Assembly (NCBI GenBank): GCA_021650915.1
Contig: CP091279.1
Span: 210,001-242,000, forward strand
From: Candidatus Brocadia sp.
GTDB taxonomy: Bacteria > Planctomycetota > Brocadiia > Brocadiales > Brocadiaceae
Direction of reading: 5' to 3'
DNA length: 32,000 nt
Positions 1,414-17,912 of this stretch are shown here, piece by piece. Both the position numbers and the translations under genes were made by a program. The notes under the pieces are model-generated. The model made no database searches, was not told the DNA's origin, and saw nothing but the letters and a program-made list of their open reading frames with translations. Each line of letters starts with the position of its first letter. Within the stretch, counting starts at the first letter, position 1.

Positions 1414-3460
1414 GAGCTGGCGCATAAGCGAAAAGATTCGTTGTAAATCAGGGAGAAGAGGCGATAGGACGGGGCAATAATTTTGTAAAGTCTACAAAAA
1501 GATATCAAGAACGGCAGCATGAAAAGGCTTGTTTTTCAGGGGAGATGAAAAAATATTTGAAGAAAAGAGGGGAAAAATTACAAAATAGTCGTGCCCATCT
1601 TGTATAATAAATCAGGCAAACTATTCGAAATACCATACAAGGGAGGGCACAGTGAAATGATACCATTATTGAGGAACACAAGCCAGCAAAAACCATTATT
1701 CCATATCATTCATGAAGACGACAGATATTTGCTGAATACCGATGATGCGGAGTGGTTTCAGGTATTGTACCATTTTCGATACGAAAGATATGTGGGGTTT
1801 GGAGTAGACTATTATAATGCGCTGCATGAATTTAACCAGAAGCAGGCCAGGGAGCGAGAAGAGCGAGGAGTTGAGGGGGAGAAAGATGCGAGGGAGACCA
1901 AGGAGGAAGCGCGGCAGAGATTGCTCTTTTCACGGGTAACCATGCAGGCAGAGGGTGAGAGAGGAGAAGGGGTTTTATTCGAGGTAAAAAGAGAAGATTT
2001 GTCGCTATCGGGGGTATCTCCGGAGAGTATAGCGCCTGGCAAGGTGCCATTTCGATTTGGGGGGAAAAAGCCGAAGTGTTTTTTTGCTTTGCTGAAGAGT
2101 TTTATCGGTGCAACGATAATGGGGTTTCCCGCCGAGCCGGAAAAGGTGTACCGGTTATTGAAGAGCAATCCCAGTTTTGCGCGGGTATGTGGATTTATTC
2201 CCAGACACGTCAGGGACGAGTATTGCAGTGAGCACATACCAAGCCTTCGGAAGCTGGAGCAGTTTGACCAGATCATGAGAGAAAGCGGGATATGGGCGAG
2301 GATAAAAGTGGAAGAGGTGAAAGCGAACATAACGAGTGGGATCATAAGAAAGGAAAATGAGTTGGTGGGAGACACGACCCATTATTACGCGTATTCGGGC
2401 TTTGAGACCGTAGTATATAAAGATGCGAGTGGCAAAGAGCAGAAGAAATCGCAGTCAAAGGTAACCAAGAGGTGTGGTTGCGAAGACAAGCAGGGGTGCA
2501 GTCATTCGTGGGGATTGAGTGATGATGGGGCGGGGACAATCGTAAAATCCGGGGGAAAGATGTATTGGGGTCACAAGGCAAGTGTGCTTGGGTATCCCCG
2601 TCAAGGGATACCCTTAGATGCGCGTGCGATAAAGGATGCGGCGACCTTTGATGGAATGACCTTATACCCGCACGTGAAGGAAGTCTTTGAGATGTATCCG
2701 GAGATTCAACCGTCGGTAGAAAGGGTATTGTATGATAGCGCAGGCGACAGTGATGAAATCAAGAAGAAATTCAGGGAGGATCTGGGTATAGAGGTAAAGG
2801 TGTCTTTCAATCCAAGAAGGAAAAAGGAGATCACGGAAGATTTGCCACGAGGAATAGACAAGATTACACCGTATGGTATTCCGGTGTGTAAGGCGGGATA
2901 CGAGATGGAATATCAGGGGATGAGATACGAACATGAGAAGTTTATCTATCAAGCGCCAAAGGATTCAGACAATGCGCCGGTATGTCGCGCTTGTTATCAT
3001 CGCGAGGATTGTTGCCCAAACGCTACCGGTGGCAGGATAATCAATATCTCGTTTGATCTCTTGCCACACATAGACCCCAAAGACCCTCCGATGGCGAAGA
3101 GGTACAAGGCCATCATGTCCCGTCGTCCTGCGGTGGAAAGGATGATAAAACGGTTGAAGTGTGACTTTGGGGATGATCGGCTCACGAAGCGGGGAAACGA
3201 TTCGTTCCAGGCATACCTGGATAAAACCATGATTGCGTTTCATGTCTTGTTAAGAAACTAAATCTGGTTTTCAGCGTAAAAGAGTCGTCGTGTGGAGGGA
3301 TGGTACGTCTGGAATTCGGCTTATTTGGTCTGGTGTCCTCTGACGAATCGTTTTTCTCTCTCTTTGACCTCGCTTTTGAGTGAAATCCGTTTCTCTGTCA
3401 ATGCACACATGATGCAGTTCCGCCTTTTCATGGCTTGTTTTTTAGTTTATGCGCAGGCTC
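1414..3460 (+). mobile_element. putative IS element (IS4/IS5-superfamily, about 2.05 kb) carrying the DDE transposase
   Basis: Candidate terminal inverted repeats: gagctggcgcataag (1414-1428) versus the reverse complement of tttatgcgcaggctc (3446-3460), 12/15 matches. Both ends are flanked by TATA (1410-1413 and 3461-3464), compatible with a 4-bp target duplication. The boundaries are inferred, not proven. Confidence 0.45.
1657..3261 (+). CDS. DDE transposase (IS4/IS5/IS1182-like)
   Basis: The ORF track starts at GTG 1591. ATG 1657 is preferred because AGGGAGGG lies about 10 nt upstream. The C-terminus (CRACYHREDCCPN ... YKAIMSRRPAVERMIKRLKCDFGDDRLTKRGNDSFQAYLDKTMIAFHVLL) matches the CxxC..C plus R(3)E(6)K signature typical of IS4/IS5/IS1182 DDE transposases. 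Confidence 0.8.
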   Translation: MIPLLRNTSQQKPLFHIIHEDDRYLLNTDDAEWFQVLYHFRYERYVGFGVDYYNALHEFNQKQAREREERGVEGEKDARETKEEARQRLLFSRVTMQAEGERGEGVLFEVKREDLSLSGVSPESIAPGKVPFRFGGKKPKCFFALLKSFIGATIMGFPAEPEKVYRLLKSNPSFARVCGFIPRHVRDEYCSEHIPSLRKLEQFDQIMRESGIWARIKVEEVKANITSGIIRKENELVGDTTHYYAYSGFETVVYKDASGKEQKKSQSKVTKRCGCEDKQGCSHSWGLSDDGAGTIVKSGGKMYWGHKASVLGYPRQGIPLDARAIKDAATFDGMTLYPHVKEVFEMYPEIQPSVERVLYDSAGDSDEIKKKFREDLGIEVKVSFNPRRKKEITEDLPRGIDKITPYGIPVCKAGYEMEYQGMRYEHEKFIYQAPKDSDNAPVCRACYHREDCCPNATGGRIINISFDLLPHIDPKDPPMAKRYKAIMSRRPAVERMIKRLKCDFGDDRLTKRGNDSFQAYLDKTMIAFHVLLRN

Positions 3461-3577
3461 TATACTCCACAGGCTCACAATTTGTGATTAATAGTAGTTC
3501 AACACGGACAGACAGAGTTTGTCCATGCCACCTTATTGTCAATTTAAAATTCACATTTTATGAGCATCTTGAGTATA
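3461..3577 (+). mobile_element. 117-bp MITE-like element, copy A
   Basis: About 112/117 identical to 17796-17912. The termini tatactc...gagtata are perfect 7-bp inverted repeats and are compatible with TA duplications. There is an internal hairpin ggacagacagagtttgtcc. Confidence 0.6.
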
Positions 3578-3787
3578 TTCAGCAACAATTGACAGAGAAT
3601 ATTTTCTCTGAATGGTTAAGAGCCAACAAGAAATATGGACAGACCGGAAATCCCGAAGGGATGACATGATTATAGAAAAAAGCACACTACCATATTCAAC
3701 CCCGTACGGGGTGAAATAAGGAAAAAATGAATGATCTCATGCCACCCCTGCGGGGTTAACCGCAATTGCATGATAATATGCTATAAT

Positions 3788-4009
3788 CATAGCGCGGCAC
3801 AGCCGCAACCAAATTTCCTTTATGAAAGCGGAGAGATTGTTTCGGAAAATGCCCTCGCAATGACAGCGACCATGCACTTTGATGGCACACGGCACGTTGT
3901 CATTGCAAGTGAAGCGAAGCAATCTTTCACTCATAAAAAACGGTACCTCCTGAAAGGGGTTTGTGAAAAAAACTTACAAAAAAAGAAGTTTTTATACTGT
4001 AATACTATA
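3788..4009 (+). repeat. 222-bp repeat, intact copy 1 (contains 11-bp-stem hairpin 3854-3864 / 3899-3909)
   Basis: Near-identical to 11964-12079 plus 13587-13692 (116 + 106 = 222 bp). ctcgcaatgac pairs with gtcattgcaag with one mismatch. Confidence 0.85.
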
Positions 4010-4505
4010 ACATCCCTTCGGGATTACAAAATCACCATCTTGTTCACGTGTAGTGATTGTAGCCGAAAGTACGCTGAAAGGTACAAAAAACCGGTAAGAT
4101 TCGTTGTTTTCAATGATACTTGTCCAATGAGAGTCATTGTATCCGGCCGAAATTTTGTCCAACAGCAGGCCGCTCAAGAGGGGACTCAAGAAGGCCCCTA
4201 CGGGTGATCGCAAACAAAGTAGCCGAAGGCCTAATTAATGTTTAGAAATTTCTGTTGCTCAGCAAATCATCGCCTCATGAGGTTTTTCAAAAAGTCGCAA
4301 GGAAAATTCTATCCATCGGTTTAGAAAGGTATTTTCTTAGGTACCTTTCTTGTGAATCCATACCAGCGGTGTCTGGACAATGGACCTATAATCTGGTGAG
4401 TTTTACAGGAGATTATCTTTGATGTCGTTCAGTGCATAGAAATATCAGTCACTCCCTCCCGTAATTGCCCATTTGGGATAAAAACCAAAACGATAAAGAA
4501 CCTGC

Positions 4506-4534
4506 TTGTTTTTTCCCCGCTGTTATTATATTAT
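4506..4534 (+). promoter_or_regulatory. candidate sigma70-type promoter for the four-gene operon
   Basis: TTGTTT (4506-4511), a 17-nt spacer, then TATTAT (4529-4534), about 50 nt upstream of ATG 4586. AGGAG RBS at 4571-4575. Pattern match only. Confidence 0.3.
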
Positions 4535-4585
4535 ACCGGTCCCGCCCTGTGTCTTAGACGGTTTTTTAGAAGGAGCAATAGATAC

Positions 4586-4915
4586 ATGAAGAAAATCATT
4601 CCTTTCGACCTGGATGGAAGTCCGGTATACATTGAAGTCGAAGATGTCCAGGAAACAAGCGCTGGTTTTCAGCGTGTTGCGCGTGACAATGAAGAAAAAG
4701 GAAAATCAGAAAATCGTTTCACCGATGCGATAACAAAAGTGAAGCCTGCCGCAGAAGCAGTTTTAAAAATGTTTCAGGAAATGAATACCCCGGATGAAAT
4801 CGGCCTCGATTTTGGCATAAAGTTTAACGCAAAGGCAGGCGCCGTGTTTGCTTCTGTTGACAGCGAGGCAACCTTTAAAGTTTCTCTTAAGTGGAAAAAC
4901 AAAAAAGAGGGCTAA
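4586..4915 (+). CDS. small protein resembling the trypsin-co-occurring Trypco2 / CU044_2847 family
   Basis: 109 aa with a good RBS. The N-terminal IPFDLDGSPVYIEVEDV and C-terminal IGLDFGIKFNAKAGAVFASVDSEATFKVSLKWK follow the family pattern as I recall it. It sits immediately upstream of a trypsin-like protease. Confidence 0.6.
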   Translation: MKKIIPFDLDGSPVYIEVEDVQETSAGFQRVARDNEEKGKSENRFTDAITKVKPAAEAVLKMFQEMNTPDEIGLDFGIKFNAKAGAVFASVDSEATFKVSLKWKNKKEG

Positions 4916-4918
4916 CCG

Positions 4919-6402
4919 ATGTCTCGCTCTGAAAGAGAAAATTTTATTGTACGCATCCTAGATCAGAACAATAAACCGGTAGGGGCAGGGTTTCTGATCT
5001 CTCCCCGGCACGTTCTTACCTGTTCCCATGTCATCTCGAAACTTGACGAAGAGATAACCCTTGATTTTCCCTTGCTGTCAACACAAAAATACAAAGCCTG
5101 CATCAAGGTTCAATTTTCACCGAAAGAGTCGGCTTGCCCTGATGATATCGAAGATATCGCCGTGCTGGAATTCCTGTTAAATCAGGAATTGCCAAATGAC
5201 GTCTCTTTTGCAACGGTGAGTGATATTCGTGACTTGTATGATCATCCTGTGAATGTATGCGGATTTCCGGAAGGCAATGACGGAGGCAGCTGGGTAGATG
5301 GCAAACTCAGGGGGGGGGTACGGCTCAGGGCTGGATACAGTTTGATCAGGAGATGCATGCAAAGTGCGTAAAACACGGGTTTAGCGGCACGGCAGTGTGG
5401 AATAAGGAAATAAAGGCAGTTGTGGGCATGGTCGTCAGTATAGACACCAGCGATAATAGAACAACTACTTACATGATACCGGCTTCTCAACTGATCAAAG
5501 CATGGCCGGAGCTTGGCAAACAAAGAAAAGCCGGGGATCATGCCAAAGTTGACTCTGAGCGAAGACCACGGGAGTCTTTCATTTACTTTCTGCCATATCT
5601 GAGTGATCGTAGCCAGCAAGCAGACAGACTGGAATTAACGCTGGATGAATGCGAGGACTGTCTCCATGAAAAACCTCTCGTCAGCATTATTCACGGTGAT
5701 GAAAAGGAGTGCCATGACAAATTTATCAAACGGCTGCACGAGGTGATGTTGCCGCAAATGTTATGTGAACCGGGAAGAGTGCATGTTGATCTTACTATGG
5801 TGGAGTGGCCTTCTATGAAGGAAGACATAAAGATGCGCTGCAAAAAATTGACGAACAATATTAGTAAAGCCCTTACCGGCAGCAGAAGGGCTAATGCCGG
5901 GGAGATTAAGGAGGCGCTCAACAGGAAGATTTCCCCGCAGATGATCTACTTTACACTCCCGGTTGCTGCATGGGAAGAAAATGAGGCAGAATTAGTAAAG
6001 TACTGGCTGCAGTATTGGAATGAGTTTCCTGACCTGAATGCCGGCAGGAAATTGATGGTGTTCCTCTGTATGAAATATAAACATATCGCAGATAACCATG
6101 CTGAGGGATCAGAAATGTACAGAAAGAAAAATGATGCCGCAAGGCATTTTATTCATGCCCTGCAGTATGTGGAATATGCAAATATCATAGGATTGACCCT
6201 GGATGAATTACAAGCGGTTGCATGGGGTGATGTCGATATGTGGATCACCACCTACGCAGAAAAATTCTGCAATGATACTGAACTGCGTACCAGGGCGATG
6301 GATTATTATAAAAATCGTGAAAAGGTGCCCATGTTAGAACTAGCTGAAAAACTGGAACATTTGCTTTCTGAAACCTGGAGAAAGGAGGGAAGTTTTGTAT
6401 GA
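4919..6402 (+). pseudogene. trypsin-like serine protease fused to a Walker-A-less P-loop-like domain, split by a frameshift at a G9 tract (ORFs 4919-5371 and 5353-6402)
   Basis: The His (TCSHV, nt 5027) and Asp (DIAVLE, nt 5153) motifs are in ORF1. The Ser motif GFSGTAVW (nt 5383) is in ORF2. The ORF2 frame is open back through the G run and reads GGGTAQGWIQFDQEMHAKCVKHGFSG. One extra G would give a single 494-aa ORF. Confidence 0.75.
5310..5318 (+). repeat. homopolymeric G9 tract at the frameshift point
   Basis: Counted directly from the sequence: the final g of 'cag' at 5310 plus gggggggg at 5311-5318. Confidence 0.95.
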
Positions 6403-7436
6403 GTATTTTTTTAAAAGGACAACCGCCTCTTGAAAGCAAAAAGGGTAATTCCGATCTGCCGCTCCCTGTGCGTCACACGCTGGACAATCCCGCTGACTAC
6501 ATCACCGAGACCGGACTTACGGATGCCGTTGATATGGCGATTATCCTGGGTCAGCCGCTGCTGCTGACAGGGGAGGCCGGCACCGGGAAGACCCTCCTGG
6601 CCTATGTGGTCGGTAACGAGCTTGGCCTAGAAACGTATAAGTTCGAAACAAAGTCCACCAGCGCTGCCCGTGACCTCTTTTACCTCTATGATACCGTTGG
6701 AAGATTTCAGGCAAAACAGACGGGAAATGAAGGAATAAATCCCGTCGATTACCTTACCTATAATGCGCTGGGTAAGGCAATCTTACAGACCCTGAAAAAG
6801 GACGAGGTAAATGATTGGCTCCCTCAGGCCAGGAAGGAAGAGGCGCGGTCTGATCAGTTCACCAGGGATTCCCGCCGGGAGGCAGACTGGCAGCGCCGGT
6901 CAATCGTCCTCATCGATGAAATTGATAAGGCGCCGCGGGATTTTCCTAATGATATTTTAAACGAAATTGAAAACATGTATTTCAAAATACCGGAACTTGG
7001 GAACAAGTCATTTGTGGCTGCCGCTGCCTTGCGCCCTCTTGTCTTTATTACCAGCAACTCGGAGAAGCATTTGCCTGACGCATTCTTACGGCGGTGCATT
7101 TTTTATAATATTGATTTTCCAAAGGCGGACATCATGAAGAAGATCATAGAAAGGCGGGTTGGGAGATACGTCACAGACAGCAAAACGTTTCTGAATAAGG
7201 CGGTTGGCTTGTTCTACGAACTCCGGGAGCCAAAAGCGGGTTTGCAAAAAAAACCGGCGACTGCTGAACTTCTCGGGTGGATCATCGCCCTGAAAGAGAT
7301 GAATAAGGATCAGGCAGACCCGTTAAGCAGGGTGAATGAAGAGAAGATACTCAGCAGTCTCTCTGTATTGATTAAAAACACCGAAGATATAGCCCAGGCA
7401 AAAAAAGCTGTTGTGCAATGGCTCAGGAAAAATTAA
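6399..7436 (+). CDS. MoxR-like AAA+ ATPase
   Basis: Walker A LLLTGEAGTGKTLLA, Walker B IVLIDEIDKAPRD, and downstream FITSNSEKHLPDAFLRRC. Single AAA+ module of 345 aa. The start overlaps the upstream stop (ATGA). Confidence 0.85.
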   Translation: MSIFLKGQPPLESKKGNSDLPLPVRHTLDNPADYITETGLTDAVDMAIILGQPLLLTGEAGTGKTLLAYVVGNELGLETYKFETKSTSAARDLFYLYDTVGRFQAKQTGNEGINPVDYLTYNALGKAILQTLKKDEVNDWLPQARKEEARSDQFTRDSRREADWQRRSIVLIDEIDKAPRDFPNDILNEIENMYFKIPELGNKSFVAAAALRPLVFITSNSEKHLPDAFLRRCIFYNIDFPKADIMKKIIERRVGRYVTDSKTFLNKAVGLFYELREPKAGLQKKPATAELLGWIIALKEMNKDQADPLSRVNEEKILSSLSVLIKNTEDIAQAKKAVVQWLRKN

Positions 7437-10400
7437 AAACATGCCTGCCCATCCTCACCAGCGAAGACCTTATCCGTCTCGCATATGAACTGCGTTCCAT
7501 CGGGTTCAGCATCGACACCCGTCAGTTTGTCGAGGCACACCGCGCTGATGACATACTGCTGGGTCTTGAAGTCCAGGGGGAATTGAAAGGCCCTGAGAGG
7601 CTCAAGACAATTCTCGCCCCTATCTTCTGTAACACGCCAGAGGAACAGGCGACCTTCTATAAATTCTTCGATTCCTGGCTCTCCCGGAATGCCCGGATTC
7701 ATGAAGAGTTTAAAGAAGCAGGAGTGCGCGTTGAACGCAAGCCCGATGGCCAGCCTGGCTGGGGAAATTTCCTTGCCCAGCATAAATACTGGTTTATTTC
7801 CCTCGTTTCCTTTGCTGTCCTGGCCATCTGGTATTTTTACCCGATGATGGGTGTTATGGAGTCAAAAAAGTGGCTCCAGGGTAAAGTCGTTGACCAGAAA
7901 ACCGGCGCCCCTGTAGAAGAGGTGTCTGTTCAATTCAATAATCGTGCCGCTCAAACAGACGGTTCAGGTTTCTTTAACTTTGGAGAATTTCCAGACAAAA
8001 CGTCAGGCGACCTGACGTTTCTCCATCCGGCATATTTGACCAAAACCCTCCCCGGAAAAAGCACTACCACTCAGCAGGACATGGAAACATTTCAACTCCG
8101 GCGCCTGCTGAAAAACCCGCGCATCGTGGTTATTGAGGTAAAGGATAAAGAGTCCGGAGTGCCTGTTGCCGGCGCAGAGGTTGCTTTTCTTACGAAGAGC
8201 AGGCGTACCGATGTCGCCGGTAAGGCAAGATTCAATTATCGTCGGGAAGAGAGCTCCACCCAAATCGACGTCATGCACGATGGATATCTGAAAAATACCC
8301 TGACCTATCAGCTGCACGGATATGATACGGTGACCGTATCTGTTGAACTGGTAAAGAGTCTGACGGCGGAAGAAGAGGCCGTCCAGTCCCTGGTGGAAAG
8401 GATTAATAAGGTCGAAATCGTGGCGACGGAAGGCGGCTGGATGAAGTTTTATAAAAAGTATTATCAGAAAATTCTCGTGGGAAGCGCAGTCCTGCCGTTT
8501 CTTTTTTTAATCGGCTGGATGCTCGGGAGATGGTACCGGAAGCCGGTTATGCTGGAACGGGAAGCCACCACGGAGACTCCATCCGTTGACTATGTGATGG
8601 TGGAATGGCTGGCCGAAGGCGTGTTCAAAAATTCCCGGTTACGCAGAATTATACAGCAGTTCAGACAACACCGCGAGTCTGTCGATCTCGAGCTGGATAC
8701 GGAGGCAACCATTTATCGGACGATTAACACCGGCGGCATGTTTACCCCCGCTTACCAGTCACGGTTTGTCTTGCCGGAGTATCTGGTGCTCATTGACCGG
8801 GCAAGCTTTGACGACCAGCAGGCAAGATTTGTGGATGAGATTATTGACCGCTTTGCGGCAGACGGTGTTTATATGGACCGGTACTACTTTAAGCGGGCCC
8901 CGCGCGTATGCCAGCCGGAAAAACCCGAAAAACCTCAGCTTGCCCTGAAAGAGCTTATCACACGCCATCCCGGCCACCGGCTGCTGGTTTTTACCGATGC
9001 CGAAGGATTTATTGACCCTTTAACCGGTAAATTACACGGCTGGATAGATCAGTTGCTGCATTGGTCCGATACGGGTATCTTCATTCCGGAAAGAACGGAC
9101 GGCATACGCTATCTGGAGAGAATCCTGGCAAAGTCCGGTTTTCATGTGGAACCGGTCAGTATTGCGGGGCTTTCCCGTCATATCGAAAGAATACAATTTG
9201 ATGCAGCATCTGCACGGTTTGACTGGCCGTTGGCCACACCCTATCCTTACCTCTTTGAAGACAAAAAGGACGTCTGGTTGCAGCAGGCCGAGCCGGATCA
9301 GCCGCACATCGATGAGTTGACTACTGCATTGAGACAGTATCTCGATGAGGAAGGCATCCTCTGGCTGGGCGCCTGCGCTGTCTATCCCGAATTGCATTGG
9401 GAGTTGACGCTGTATCTGGCCGCAAAGTTAACATTAGGCGATAAAGATACCCTTACCGCAGAAGAACAGGATCGTCTCCGGAAAAAACTCCTGGAAGTGA
9501 CGCGGTTGCCATGGTTTCGTTACGGCAGTATGCCGGATTGGCTGCGGCTGTGCCTGATCAAAAACTTGCAGGAGAAAAATCAGCACCATCAAATACGCAG
9601 GATCATCAGGGAACTGCTCTCCTCTGCACGGAGGGATTACCGTGAAGGTTTTCAGAAGACCGGAAGGGCTATCAGACTGCCGGTTGCCTGGAAAAGCGTT
9701 ATCTTCCACCTCAGGTATCTCAAACGCAAGATAGCGGCGCTCTTTCAAAGGGGGATTGACGATGATCCGCTGAACGACTATGTCTTTTCAAATTATATCA
9801 GCAGCGGGCGAAGCCTGCTCGCGGTGATTATTCCCGACCGGGTAAAACACCTTTTTTTCCGGAAAGGGCAGGCAATCCTTGGCCTCAGGCCGGCGGCAGG
9901 TATTATTATGTCAGTGGCCATCAGTGCGCTGGTATTTACTGCTGCTCAATGGCTAAAACCGCCCCCTTCAATTATTGATCCCATACCTGAATTTGCCTTT
10001 GTAAAAAAGACTTCTCTGTCCGGAATTGATGGCCCTGCCGGAGTCAGCCGGGAAACTATTGCCGTATGTCTCAGGCGCTTCATGGAGCACCGGGGCATCT
10101 CTATAACCGCTGATGCCGATGGTGACTACCGGCGGGTCTATTCGCAGTTCACCATCTGGCTGGCCGAAGTCCTGTCGCAAAAGGCAGGATTGAACACATC
10201 GCAATTTGCATTTTATACCGGCTTAACGGGAACCCCTGAAAGTGATTTTAAAAACGTAAATGACAAACTCTATGTAGTGAAGGCAATAAAGATCGCGGAG
10301 AAAAACGAAGAATCCGAAGTTGCAAAGAAAACGCCCGTGGTCTCTGTAACATTTAATATAGGTAAGTTAAAAGAGGACATGGTGTTTATTCAGGGTGGTT

Positions 10401-16887: not shown

Positions 16888-17187
16888 ATGATTAACAATA
16901 CGGTAAAAGACATCATAGCCCCTTGCCTTTGGGGGGCTGCAATCAACTCGCTTGATCTTGAATTCGATAAATTCCTCATCATTGAACGAGCTTTAGAACA
17001 TGGCGGTGACAGGCAAATTGAGTTTGCTTTGGCAACTTTCAATCACGACGATATCATCTATGTGGTACAGCAAAGCTCTTATCTAAGTCCCAGGACTGTC
17101 AATTATTGGTGTTTGTTTTTTGACCTGAAAAGGGAGGATACAAAGTGCTTCCAGAAGCAATACCGGTATCTGTGGCCACCCTTTTAG
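16888..17187 (+). CDS. small protein upstream of AbiEii-like NTase (DUF6922-like, putative antitoxin/partner)
   Basis: 99 aa. The pattern LWGAAINSLDLEFDKFLIIERALEHGG...SPRTVNYWCLFF resembles the small partner proteins found 5' of AbiEii-family genes. It overlaps the downstream ORF by 43 nt. Confidence 0.5.
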   Translation: MINNTVKDIIAPCLWGAAINSLDLEFDKFLIIERALEHGGDRQIEFALATFNHDDIIYVVQQSSYLSPRTVNYWCLFFDLKREDTKCFQKQYRYLWPPF

Positions 17188-17822
17188 ATGATATTCACAC
17201 CTGGCCATTGCCAGTTGGCACCTATATGGCAGGCGGAACTGCTGTTGCCATATACTTGAATCATAGGGTATCAGTGGATATCGATTTGTTCACAGAAAAA
17301 GAGTTCTATTGCAGTTCTATTATAGTTCCTATCGGTCAAAGATATGTCACTACGATAACAAATCCTGCAGAAAAGAATACGCTGACAGCGATGGTCGCTA
17401 ACGTCAGGTTCAGCCTTTTTCATTATCCGTATCCACTTCTTAAACCCCTGGTGAATAAGCCGGAGTGTAATATCGGATTAGCATCGCCAGAGGATATTGC
17501 AGCTATGAAGGTTGTGGCTATAACGCAGAGAGGAAGCGCAAAAGATTTTGTTGATCTTCATGCACTCATAGGGGCTTTTGGATTACCGTTGGATTATTTG
17601 ATAGTGCAGGTTCTGAAAAAATATGGAGTTTCTGGAGATTACGGCTATCAGATAAAGAGGAGTCTGGTATATTTTGATGATGCTGTGAGGAGCTTGGGTG
17701 ATGTAACCGTAATGAGAAATGAAAAAGAGGTAAGACTGGACAGGCATGAGTGGACAAAAATTGAGGAGTTTTTTAAGAGCCTGGTGTTAGGTCGTTATAC
17801 TCCGCAGGCTCACAATTTGTGA
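17145..17822 (+). CDS. nucleotidyltransferase, AbiEii/AbiGii toxin-like family
   Basis: YMAGGTAVAIYLNHRVSVDIDLF is the family's N-terminal signature (GGTAL..HR.S.D.D.F). The GTG start is uncertain. The last 27 nt plus stop lie inside MITE-like copy B. Confidence 0.7.
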   Translation: MLPEAIPVSVATLLDDIHTWPLPVGTYMAGGTAVAIYLNHRVSVDIDLFTEKEFYCSSIIVPIGQRYVTTITNPAEKNTLTAMVANVRFSLFHYPYPLLKPLVNKPECNIGLASPEDIAAMKVVAITQRGSAKDFVDLHALIGAFGLPLDYLIVQVLKKYGVSGDYGYQIKRSLVYFDDAVRSLGDVTVMRNEKEVRLDRHEWTKIEEFFKSLVLGRYTPQAHNL

Positions 17823-17912
17823 TTTATAGTAGTTCAACACGGACAAACAGAGTTTGTCCATGCCACCTTATTATCAATTTAAAATTCATATTTTATGAGC
17901 ATCTTGAGTATA
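17796..17912 (+). mobile_element. 117-bp MITE-like element, copy B
   Basis: See copy A. It has the same termini tatactc...gagtata. It overlaps the 3' end of the NTase gene. Confidence 0.6.

Follow-up and report, generated by a model that had tools for sequence, protein, structure and literature searches.

A probable membrane-anchored vWA component of an iSTAND-type MoxR-vWA system in Candidatus Brocadia

The window analysed in this study is a whole stretch of 32,000 nucleotides from Candidatus Brocadia sp. (assembly GCA_021650915.1, contig CP091279.1, positions 210,001 to 242,000 of the forward strand), and all coordinates below refer to it. The subject is a 1487-aa protein encoded on the plus strand at 7418–11881, which is probably the membrane-anchored vWA component of an iSTAND-type MoxR-vWA ternary conflict system, a predicted anti-invader system, with its FGE-sulfatase (FGS) domains as an outward receptor. 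Its gene is the last in an operon that runs on the plus strand in the order Trypco1, trypsin-iSTAND, MoxR and vWA component, the gene ends overlapping or abutting. The first gene (4586–4915) encodes the trypsin-co-occurring domain Trypco1 (Pfam PF19493, E 5.4e-26; NCBIfam CU044_2847 family, 6.3e-18). It is followed by the N-terminal part of a trypsin-like peptidase with the His and Asp motifs (4919–5371; Pfam Trypsin_2, 9.2e-9), which ends after a frameshift and gives PADLOC matches of the protease type (LmuA, RT-Protease). The next open reading frame (ORF), at 5353–6402, carries the C-terminal part of the trypsin with the GFSGT serine motif together with an inactive STAND (iSTAND) module, which is the system's third component (Pfam PF19995 at aa 81–240 of this ORF, E 1.3e-27). 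The MoxR-type AAA+ ATPase (6399–7436; Pfam AAA / AAA_5), whose gene overlaps that of the vWA component by 19 nt, is CoxD-like: BLASTP aligned its entire length with CoxD of pHCG3, the CO-dehydrogenase plasmid (E 2e-23). Its Walker A (GEAGTGKT at aa 58) and Walker B (VLIDEID at aa 170) motifs are intact. It also gave a partial match, far below threshold, to the NCBIfam model NF047784 'MadB family AAA-type ATPase' (5e-23, 82 bits vs a cut-off of 475); a literature search for the meaning of MadB turned up nothing relevant. The vWA and iSTAND proteins match no PADLOC model. Contig LAQJ01000245.1 of Candidatus Brocadia fulgida matches the region 3286–12073 with 99.9% identity.

The 1487-aa protein begins with a CoxE-type four-helix N-domain (aa 15–90, 7460–7687, plus strand), which is predicted to be cytoplasmic. 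The reference for this comparison was the archetypal CoxE from pHCG3 (L002:33637-34836), to which we changed because E. coli YehP lacks a CoxE-type N-domain. An hhalign run of the family's N-region alignment against this single CoxE gave a probability of 84–91% (E 7e-6 to 1e-6), and against 120 CoxE relatives the probability reached 95.2% (E 2.9e-8), with aa 16–93 paired with CoxE 19–89. The score of 55 lies far above those of 60 block-shuffled templates (14.4 ± 2.4, maximum 23). The AlphaFold2 (AF2) model places helices at aa 15–27, 34–53, 59–70 and 74–90, and the domain was found in 142 of the 160 sampled relatives. Judged from these sequence comparisons, the N-domain is homologous to that of CoxE, and the CoxE pattern that a first-pass annotation of the window had proposed for the N-terminus was correct.

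In a canonical vWA domain, the Rossmannoid sheet has six strands, of which one at the edge is antiparallel, and an Asp ends each of strands 1 and 4. The central region of the Brocadia protein (aa 416–594, 8663–9199, plus strand; predicted to be cytoplasmic) was found to contain a diverged vWA-like alpha/beta domain with an N-terminal 'finger'. In the AF2 model of aa 371–824 (pLDDT, the per-residue confidence, 76.9; pTM, the global one, 0.72), the alpha/beta domain occupies aa 428–594 with the order b1(LVLIDRA)-a-b2-b3-a-b4(LLVFT)-a-b5-a-b6-a at pLDDT 80–92. When this model was compared with the PDB by Foldseek, NorD, the vWA protein that partners the MoxR ATPase NorQ, provided the top two matches (9qhg_G, E 1e-4, and 9qhf_G, E 5e-4; probability 1.00), followed by flavodoxin and phosphoribosyltransferase folds at E above 6e-3. 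An independent model of aa 1–860 again returned NorD first (9qhf_G and 9qhe_G, E 1.4e-3). In the hhalign comparisons with CoxE, the recurring stretch extended from the segment before beta1 through alpha1 (E 6e-4 to 3e-3). With domain-restricted profiles, the alignment was colinear over 174 columns (Prob 42%, E 2.6e-4) and paired DRASF with DASGS, and FTDAEG with VSDGYD, of CoxE; only about 69 of the vWA columns, comprising the finger, beta1 and alpha1, are confidently aligned. The score for the vWA part was 32.3, as compared with 13.6 ± 2.5 and a maximum of 20.3 for shuffles (z about 7.5). By these sequence alignments, the finger before beta1 is the best-conserved part in common with CoxE.

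We therefore regard the central domain as probably a vWA domain. Several results weigh against this assignment and, with it, against the reading given at the outset. The Foldseek TM-scores to NorD were only 0.35–0.40, with a root mean square deviation of 9–12 Å, and no vWA structure other than NorD was found among the top 50 matches. The hhalign probability for the vWA part was 13–42%. No vWA was detected by Pfam, NCBIfam or PADLOC models in the whole protein or in its segments, a PDB-sequence search with a profile of the centre gave chance matches only and no vWA, and YehP, a PF05762 member, together with its family matched neither the N-domain nor the vWA domain when used as the CoxE reference. 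PF05762 (VWA_CoxE) itself was unmatched at E up to 1 for the protein and up to 10 for 18 relatives, while the control YehP matches it at 2.3e-72; among the same 18 relatives, one matched Pfam VWA_2 (E 0.0095). The low TM-scores and the lack of matches to other vWA structures indicate that the domain is strongly derived. The alternative is a generic flavodoxin-like or Rossmannoid fold that resembles a vWA domain, with only the N-domain common to CoxE. The blank sequence libraries, the TM-scores to NorD below 0.5 and the Foldseek matches from rank 3 on, which are phosphoribosyltransferases, flavodoxins and CheY-like folds, would fit such a fold. Nevertheless, we consider it quite improbable, since the top two matches in both models are the sole solved CoxE/NorD-type MoxR-partner vWA (Foldseek probability 1.00), the alignment of the finger-beta1-alpha1 segment with CoxE scores well above shuffles, its order and its distance from the N-domain being as in CoxE, an aspartate persists at the end of beta1 and of beta4, and the same vWA assignment was made independently by Kaur et al. 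(2020; eLife 9:e52696, PMC7159879).

[quoted passage not shown] The canonical DxSxS is replaced by D-R-A-S-F (aa 460–464, 8795–8809, plus strand), located where the first-pass annotation had placed it and paired with DASGS of CoxE, while the second MIDAS aspartate is retained as D527 at the end of strand beta4 (8996–8998, plus strand). No equivalent of the Thr of a complete MIDAS (DxSxS ... T ... D) aligns. Among 157 relatives, position 460 (canonical D) is D in 94%, position 461 (canonical x) is R in 96%, position 462 (canonical S) is A, T or V, with S in 4%, and position 464 (canonical S) is F or Y in 71%; position 466, which has no canonical role, is D in 100%, and position 527 (canonical D) is D in 83% and E in 9%. 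In the family alignment, the two MIDAS aspartates are thus kept, the Ser/Thr ligands are lost and a DRxx[FY]xD[QH] signature is found instead. Since this loss is seen across the 157 relatives, the degenerate MIDAS is a family trait; most ternary-system vWA domains have also been reported to keep the two aspartates (PMC7159879). As far as the sequence can tell, the classical metal-dependent MIDAS contact is lost, and the highly conserved new motif at the site (8795–8815, aa 460–466) suggests that a different, selected function exists there. The earlier proposal of a diverged vWA core with a degenerate MIDAS is accordingly upheld by the NorD matches at the top of the Foldseek list, the hhalign scores above those of shuffles and the missing Ser/Thr ligands.

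Three transmembrane (TM) helices were assigned from hydropathy and the AF2 models, all on the plus strand: TM1 (aa 123–144, 7784–7849), TM2 (aa 349–372, 8462–8533) and TM3 (aa 825–845, 9890–9952). The Kyte-Doolittle peaks are at aa 126–144, 352–370 and 825–843, the AF2 helices are at aa 123–143, 349–383 and 825–845, and the three helices that the first-pass annotation proposed at 7787–7855, 8468–8533 and 9884–9955 match both. The loop between TM1 and TM2, which is predicted to be extracytoplasmic, contains a beta-sandwich of the CarboxypepD_reg or transthyretin-like type (aa 153–217, 7868–8092, plus strand; Pfam 6.4e-10), whose Foldseek match is the transthyretin-like domain of carboxypeptidase D (5aq0_A, TM-score 0.61). 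A second beta-sandwich (aa 240–311, 8135–8350, plus strand) is probable and weakly supported: its Pfam match is below threshold (E 8.9e-5, 23 bits vs a 32-bit cut-off; model positions 5–81 of 82), and it is poorly modelled (AF2 pLDDT 25–43). Thus, of the two CarboxypepD_reg domains claimed previously, the first stands and the second is doubtful.

Both conserved blocks, namely the N-domain and the centre, were found in all 19 first-round homologues, whatever intervenes between them. Exactly two hydrophobic helices lie between the N-domain and the vWA domain in 113 of the 142 relatives carrying both blocks, with a loop of 2–453 aa (median 71) between them, and 107 of the 142 have a helix directly after the centre. 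Over these 142 relatives, the mean numbers of K+R per 15 flanking residues before and after the helix are 4.08 and 1.35 for TM1, 1.54 and 4.57 for TM2, and 3.01 and 1.37 for TM3. This positive-inside signal at all three helices places the N-domain and the vWA domain in the cytoplasm and the loop and the C-terminus outside, and the extracytoplasmic C-terminal modules of the relatives agree with the latter. The in-out-in-out topology inferred earlier is thereby borne out. At the junction between the N-domain and the vWA domain, CoxE has a linker of about 100 aa and NorD has one of about 150 aa. The membrane segment therefore sits in the natural linker between the two domains and not inside a domain. 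The TM / beta-sandwich / TM segment is thus in place as had been described, but the term 'split' is inappropriate for it, because no domain is split and CoxE and NorD have their linkers at the same place.

Downstream of the vWA domain, a conserved helical module was found at aa 611–740 (ACAVYP...LPWFRxGxMPDWLR; 9248–9637, plus strand), with AF2 helices at pLDDT 80–91 and invariant columns. The module has no Pfam or PDB match, and nothing was matched at aa 595–824 and 844–990 in the Pfam, NCBIfam and PADLOC scans. By analogy, it is probably the vWA-L domain, an alpha-helical linker domain between the vWA domain and the effectors (Kaur et al. 2021, PMC8195603), a name given here on its position and helical character. 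The 260 aa in which no motif had been recognised probably correspond for the most part to the C-terminal half of the vWA domain and this helical module.

Beyond TM3, the protein ends in two FGS domains of the C-type-lectin (CLec) fold (Pfam 6.7e-106), as the first-pass annotation had it: domain 1 at 10379–11056, which is predicted to be extracytoplasmic, and domain 2 at 11186–11878 (aa 1257–1478), both on the plus strand. FGS domains were found in 14 of the 160 relatives, C-terminal every time. In the 19 homologues, the modules beyond TM3 vary and include OmpA, PASTA, PKD, the TssM/IcmF periplasmic domain and CHASE2. One homologue (P0005) carries periplasmic IcmF/TssM domains (PF06744, PF06761, PF21070) as its C-terminal module, so that a part of the type VI secretion membrane complex is grafted on a MoxR-partner core; TssM shares the topology of three TM helices with a cytoplasmic domain. 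Homology of the family to TssM/IcmF was considered in view of these domains and of the three-TM likeness, and it was rejected, as the cytoplasmic domain is not a P-loop NTPase. It was also found that 51 nt after the stop codon (11890–11940) repeat the linker between the FGS domains (11073–11123) with 86% identity, which indicates that the unit of tandem duplication extends past the present stop. Two homologues (P0002 and P0003) retain a translated tail at the position that follows the stop codon here.

The profile of the centre retrieved 4193 clusters (50% identity) with a limit of E 1e-3 and 2902 with a limit of 1e-30. The relatives located in 80 species-representative genomes have hosts that include Brocadiaceae, Acidobacteriota, Thiomargarita, Beggiatoa-like bacteria, Nostoc, Trichodesmium, Chloroflexota, Desulfobacterales and Saprospiraceae. 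Of the 80 loci, 68 have a MoxR homologue no farther than 6 kb away, and 10 of the remaining 12 loci are cut by a contig end upstream. Among 47 loci, 39 have iSTAND directly upstream of MoxR, and DUF4062-iSTAND also occurs in the loci of relatives; L003, L006 and L007 are examples of the family context. A family member is present in the metagenome-assembled genome of Chromatiaceae bacterium isolate ppb02 (L069), and one relative carries the label 'MFS transporter'. About 4200 clusters thus contain the core, and the standard libraries are blank between the beta-sandwiches and the C-terminal modules; the CoxE-type N-domain, the TM hairpin, the cryptic vWA domain and the helical module together place such proteins in the published conflict system.

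The resemblance to CoxE and CoxD of Afipia/Oligotropha carboxidovorans pHCG3 (PF05762) is considerable: the N-domain, the linker, the finger and the vWA domain follow in the same order, and the MoxR partner is homologous to CoxD. Taken with the NorD structure as the best structural match and the strong FGE-sulfatase Pfam match, it might point to a housekeeping chaperone working as CoxD/CoxE or NorQ/NorD do, which would mature a membrane or periplasmic enzyme or insert its cofactor, the FGE-sulfatase domains being catalytic. However, CoxE is a soluble protein of 399 aa with a complete MIDAS (DASGS...T...D) and no C-terminal modules, which acts in CO-dehydrogenase maturation, whereas the Brocadia protein has a TM-hairpin linker, has lost the MIDAS Ser/Thr ligands and does not match the PF05762 model. 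The loss of the MIDAS extends through the family, unrelated modules replace one another at the C-terminus, the constant neighbours are iSTAND, trypsin/DUF4062 and Trypco genes, retroelements target the FGS domains, as described below, and no conserved client enzyme gene lies nearby. A housekeeping function is accordingly very improbable.

Targets of diversity-generating retroelements (DGRs) are recognised by a variable region (VR) that ends a CLec/FGS domain, a cognate template repeat (TR) with adenine-specific mismatches, and a nearby reverse transcriptase (RT) with Avd or HRDC. Such elements were found directly downstream of the gene in close and more distant relatives. At the homologous locus L003 (68% identity), an HRDC protein, an RT and a TR (9920–10055 of that locus) come after the gene, and the TR differs from the end of the second FGS domain (8216–8351) at 26 positions, 23 of which are template adenines. 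At the locus L004 (75% identity), a bAvd gene lies downstream (L004:4936-5256), and in two Acidobacteriota loci (L032 and L048) the RT is directly downstream. In the window, the VR-like segments of the two FGS domains (10907–11042 in domain 1 and 11729–11864 in domain 2) were compared with the L003 TR: 17 of 26 mismatches in the former (p 1e-4) and 18 of 26 in the latter (p 2e-5) fall on TR adenines, as compared with an expectation of 29%. On sequence, both FGS C-termini in the window thus look like DGR variable regions. A search for a TR in the window found the two FGS copies alone as repeats, and their mutual mismatches show no adenine bias; pattern scans of the genome and metagenome contigs found no RT or TR for the Brocadia locus. 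The new point of this analysis is that iSTAND-type relatives, Brocadiaceae-like and from Acidobacteriota, are DGR targets. The first-pass annotation had noticed neither this DGR link nor the signs of decay described below.

The ternary systems of the iSTAND type were defined by Kaur et al. (2020; PMC7159879), who predicted them to act against invaders and unified the four-helical N-domain of the vWA component with that of CoxE. They reported TM segments in about 28% of the examples, FGS as the commonest effector (22%), PEGA, OmpA and PASTA domains 'typically preceded by a TM segment', and a subset of membrane-acting iSTAND systems. The Brocadia operon agrees with this description in the peptidase-iSTAND and Trypco genes, in a MoxR protein without extensions and in a vWA component whose CoxE-type N-domain is accompanied by TM segments, a helical linker and, at the C-terminus, variable modules including FGS. 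The phyletic pattern is also alike: filamentous cyanobacteria, large sulfur bacteria, Acidobacteriota, Chloroflexota and planctomycetes. Nothing categorical differs, although the text of that paper is not explicit on a TM hairpin exactly between the N-domain and the vWA domain, and although DGRs are tied there mainly to VMAP systems, whereas here they accompany iSTAND-type relatives. The Brocadia locus is not named in the text of the paper or in one of its supplements. Since the layout with the N-domain, TM segments and FGS effectors has thus been published, the claim of the first-pass annotation that no vWA-MoxR partner of this kind had been described fails. The value of our analysis is modest and mostly one of annotation; no new category is opened.

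A second published comparison concerns the FGS domains. Dore et al. (2024; PNAS, PMC10907252) proposed a sensor model for DGR-diversified targets that adjoin MoxR in multicellular bacteria (DGR 8/9-type loci). As in those loci, MoxR is immediately upstream in Brocadia, trypsin and Trypco genes are neighbours, tandem CLec/FGS domains with VRs form the C-terminus, and multiple TM regions put the CLec domains in the periplasm; the window differs in that it lacks the RT and the TR. The core of the present family may be identical to the 'unknown N-terminal extension' of the MoxR-linked DGR targets in Thiohalocapsa PB-PSB1 (Dore et al. 2024).

How such a protein would work may be considered by analogy with NorQD, where the finger of the vWA domain inserts into the pore of MoxR, the N-domain attaches to the small AAA+ subdomain, and the linker that joins the two becomes stretched (PMC13036017, Nat Commun 2026). 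NorD (PDB 9qhe/9qhf/9qhg) is the best structural match of the centre, and it resembles the Brocadia protein in that a long linker parts its N-domain from its vWA domain. It differs in being soluble, in its intact MIDAS and in its target, nitric oxide reductase; the sequence similarity is undetectable and the TM-scores are those given above, so that the Brocadia protein can be said to work as NorD does by analogy only. In this scheme, the CoxE-type N-domain and the vWA domain would be two cytoplasmic handles for the adjacent MoxR ATPase, joined by a linker in the form of a TM hairpin with an extracytoplasmic beta-sandwich loop. The FGS domains outside would constitute a hypervariable ligand receptor facing the periplasm (paryphoplasm), a role in which they are read because DGRs diversify them in close relatives. 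Binding of a ligand outside would change the action of MoxR on the pair of the N-domain and the vWA domain, and the ATP-driven remodelling by MoxR would then license the trypsin-iSTAND protein with Trypco1 to act. The function is predicted to be defence against invaders.

A stronger version can be imagined, in which ATP-driven mechanical signals cross the membrane: MoxR would pull or twist the TM helices and so read or reset the occupancy of the hypervariable receptor. It suggests itself because MoxR stretches the NorD linker, the linker is a TM hairpin here and TM3 ties the core to the receptor. We think it unlikely; MoxR-driven mechanical coupling across the membrane has not been described for MoxR-vWA pairs.

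The opposite direction of signalling corresponds to the published reading (PMC7159879, PMC8195603), in which iSTAND senses the invader and MoxR-vWA is a threshold switch only; the trypsin would cleave the vWA component and thereby free or activate FGS effectors that bind and block invader molecules. The fusion of the peptidase to iSTAND and its pairing with Trypco1 fit this scheme, and the C-terminal modules are highly variable, like the effectors of other conflict systems. Nevertheless, the FGS domains come after TM3, on the outside, where a cytoplasmic trypsin would have no direct reach, and a lectin fold diversified by a DGR serves for binding, in keeping with a receptor. Release of effectors thus fits less well than the receptor function, given the position of FGS beyond a membrane helix, and we judge it rather unlikely; the predicted outward orientation of hypervariable domains favours the receptor.

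The receptor reading has its own difficulties besides those already given for the vWA domain. The charge bias is weak at TM1 and TM2 when the 1487-aa protein is taken alone, and the topology is based on hydropathy and charge statistics. The window contains no RT and no TR, the trypsin-iSTAND gene is frameshifted in two assemblies, and no experimental work on an iSTAND system turned up in a literature search.

The frameshift lies at a G9 homopolymer (5310–5318, plus strand), where sequence and frame translation show that the trypsin frame breaks. A G10 run there would join 4919–5371 to 5353–6402 as a single ORF. The identical G9 run occurs in the Ca. Brocadia fulgida contig LAQJ01000245.1, which belongs to an independent draft assembly; a genuine frameshift, phase variation or a sequencing error common to both assemblies may explain it. 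The operon is bracketed by copies of a repeat of about 220 bp (96–97% identical), the upstream one at 3788–4009. The downstream copy (11964–13692) is split into the halves 11964–12079 and 13584–13692 by an IS110-family element (12080–13583) with its transposase on the minus strand (12434–13444). The repeat and IS110 occupy the place of the DGR cassette in homologues, and the synteny with L003 reaches no further than 11940. The end of the B. fulgida draft contig falls within the repeats of about 220 bp.

The frameshift, the absent DGR cassette and the flanking repeat with IS110 suggest that this copy may be decaying. A decaying, non-functional copy, which would be compatible with the other readings, is a possibility that we hold to be real but not the likelier case. 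To the G9 run shared by two independent assemblies, and to the end of the L003 synteny at 11940 with the repeat and IS110 following, can be added the remnant of the inter-domain linker after the stop codon (11879–11881). On the other hand, the 1487-aa ORF, MoxR and Trypco1 are intact, the homopolymer length may be a shared sequencing error or phase variation, and a DGR can act in trans from another position in the genome (PMC7159879). An iSTAND ternary system, possibly decaying, is documented here in an anammox bacterium.

Some further features were noted in the window around the operon. An additional pair of 117-nt repeats is located at 3461–3577 and 17796–17912. An ORF of 556 aa upstream of the operon (1591–3261) has no Pfam match, and an ORF at 17145–17822 gives a partial Pfam match (3e-15) to an AbiEii-type nucleotidyltransferase toxin. 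Together with the insertion sequence and the repeats, these two ORFs suggest a mobile or defence-rich neighbourhood.

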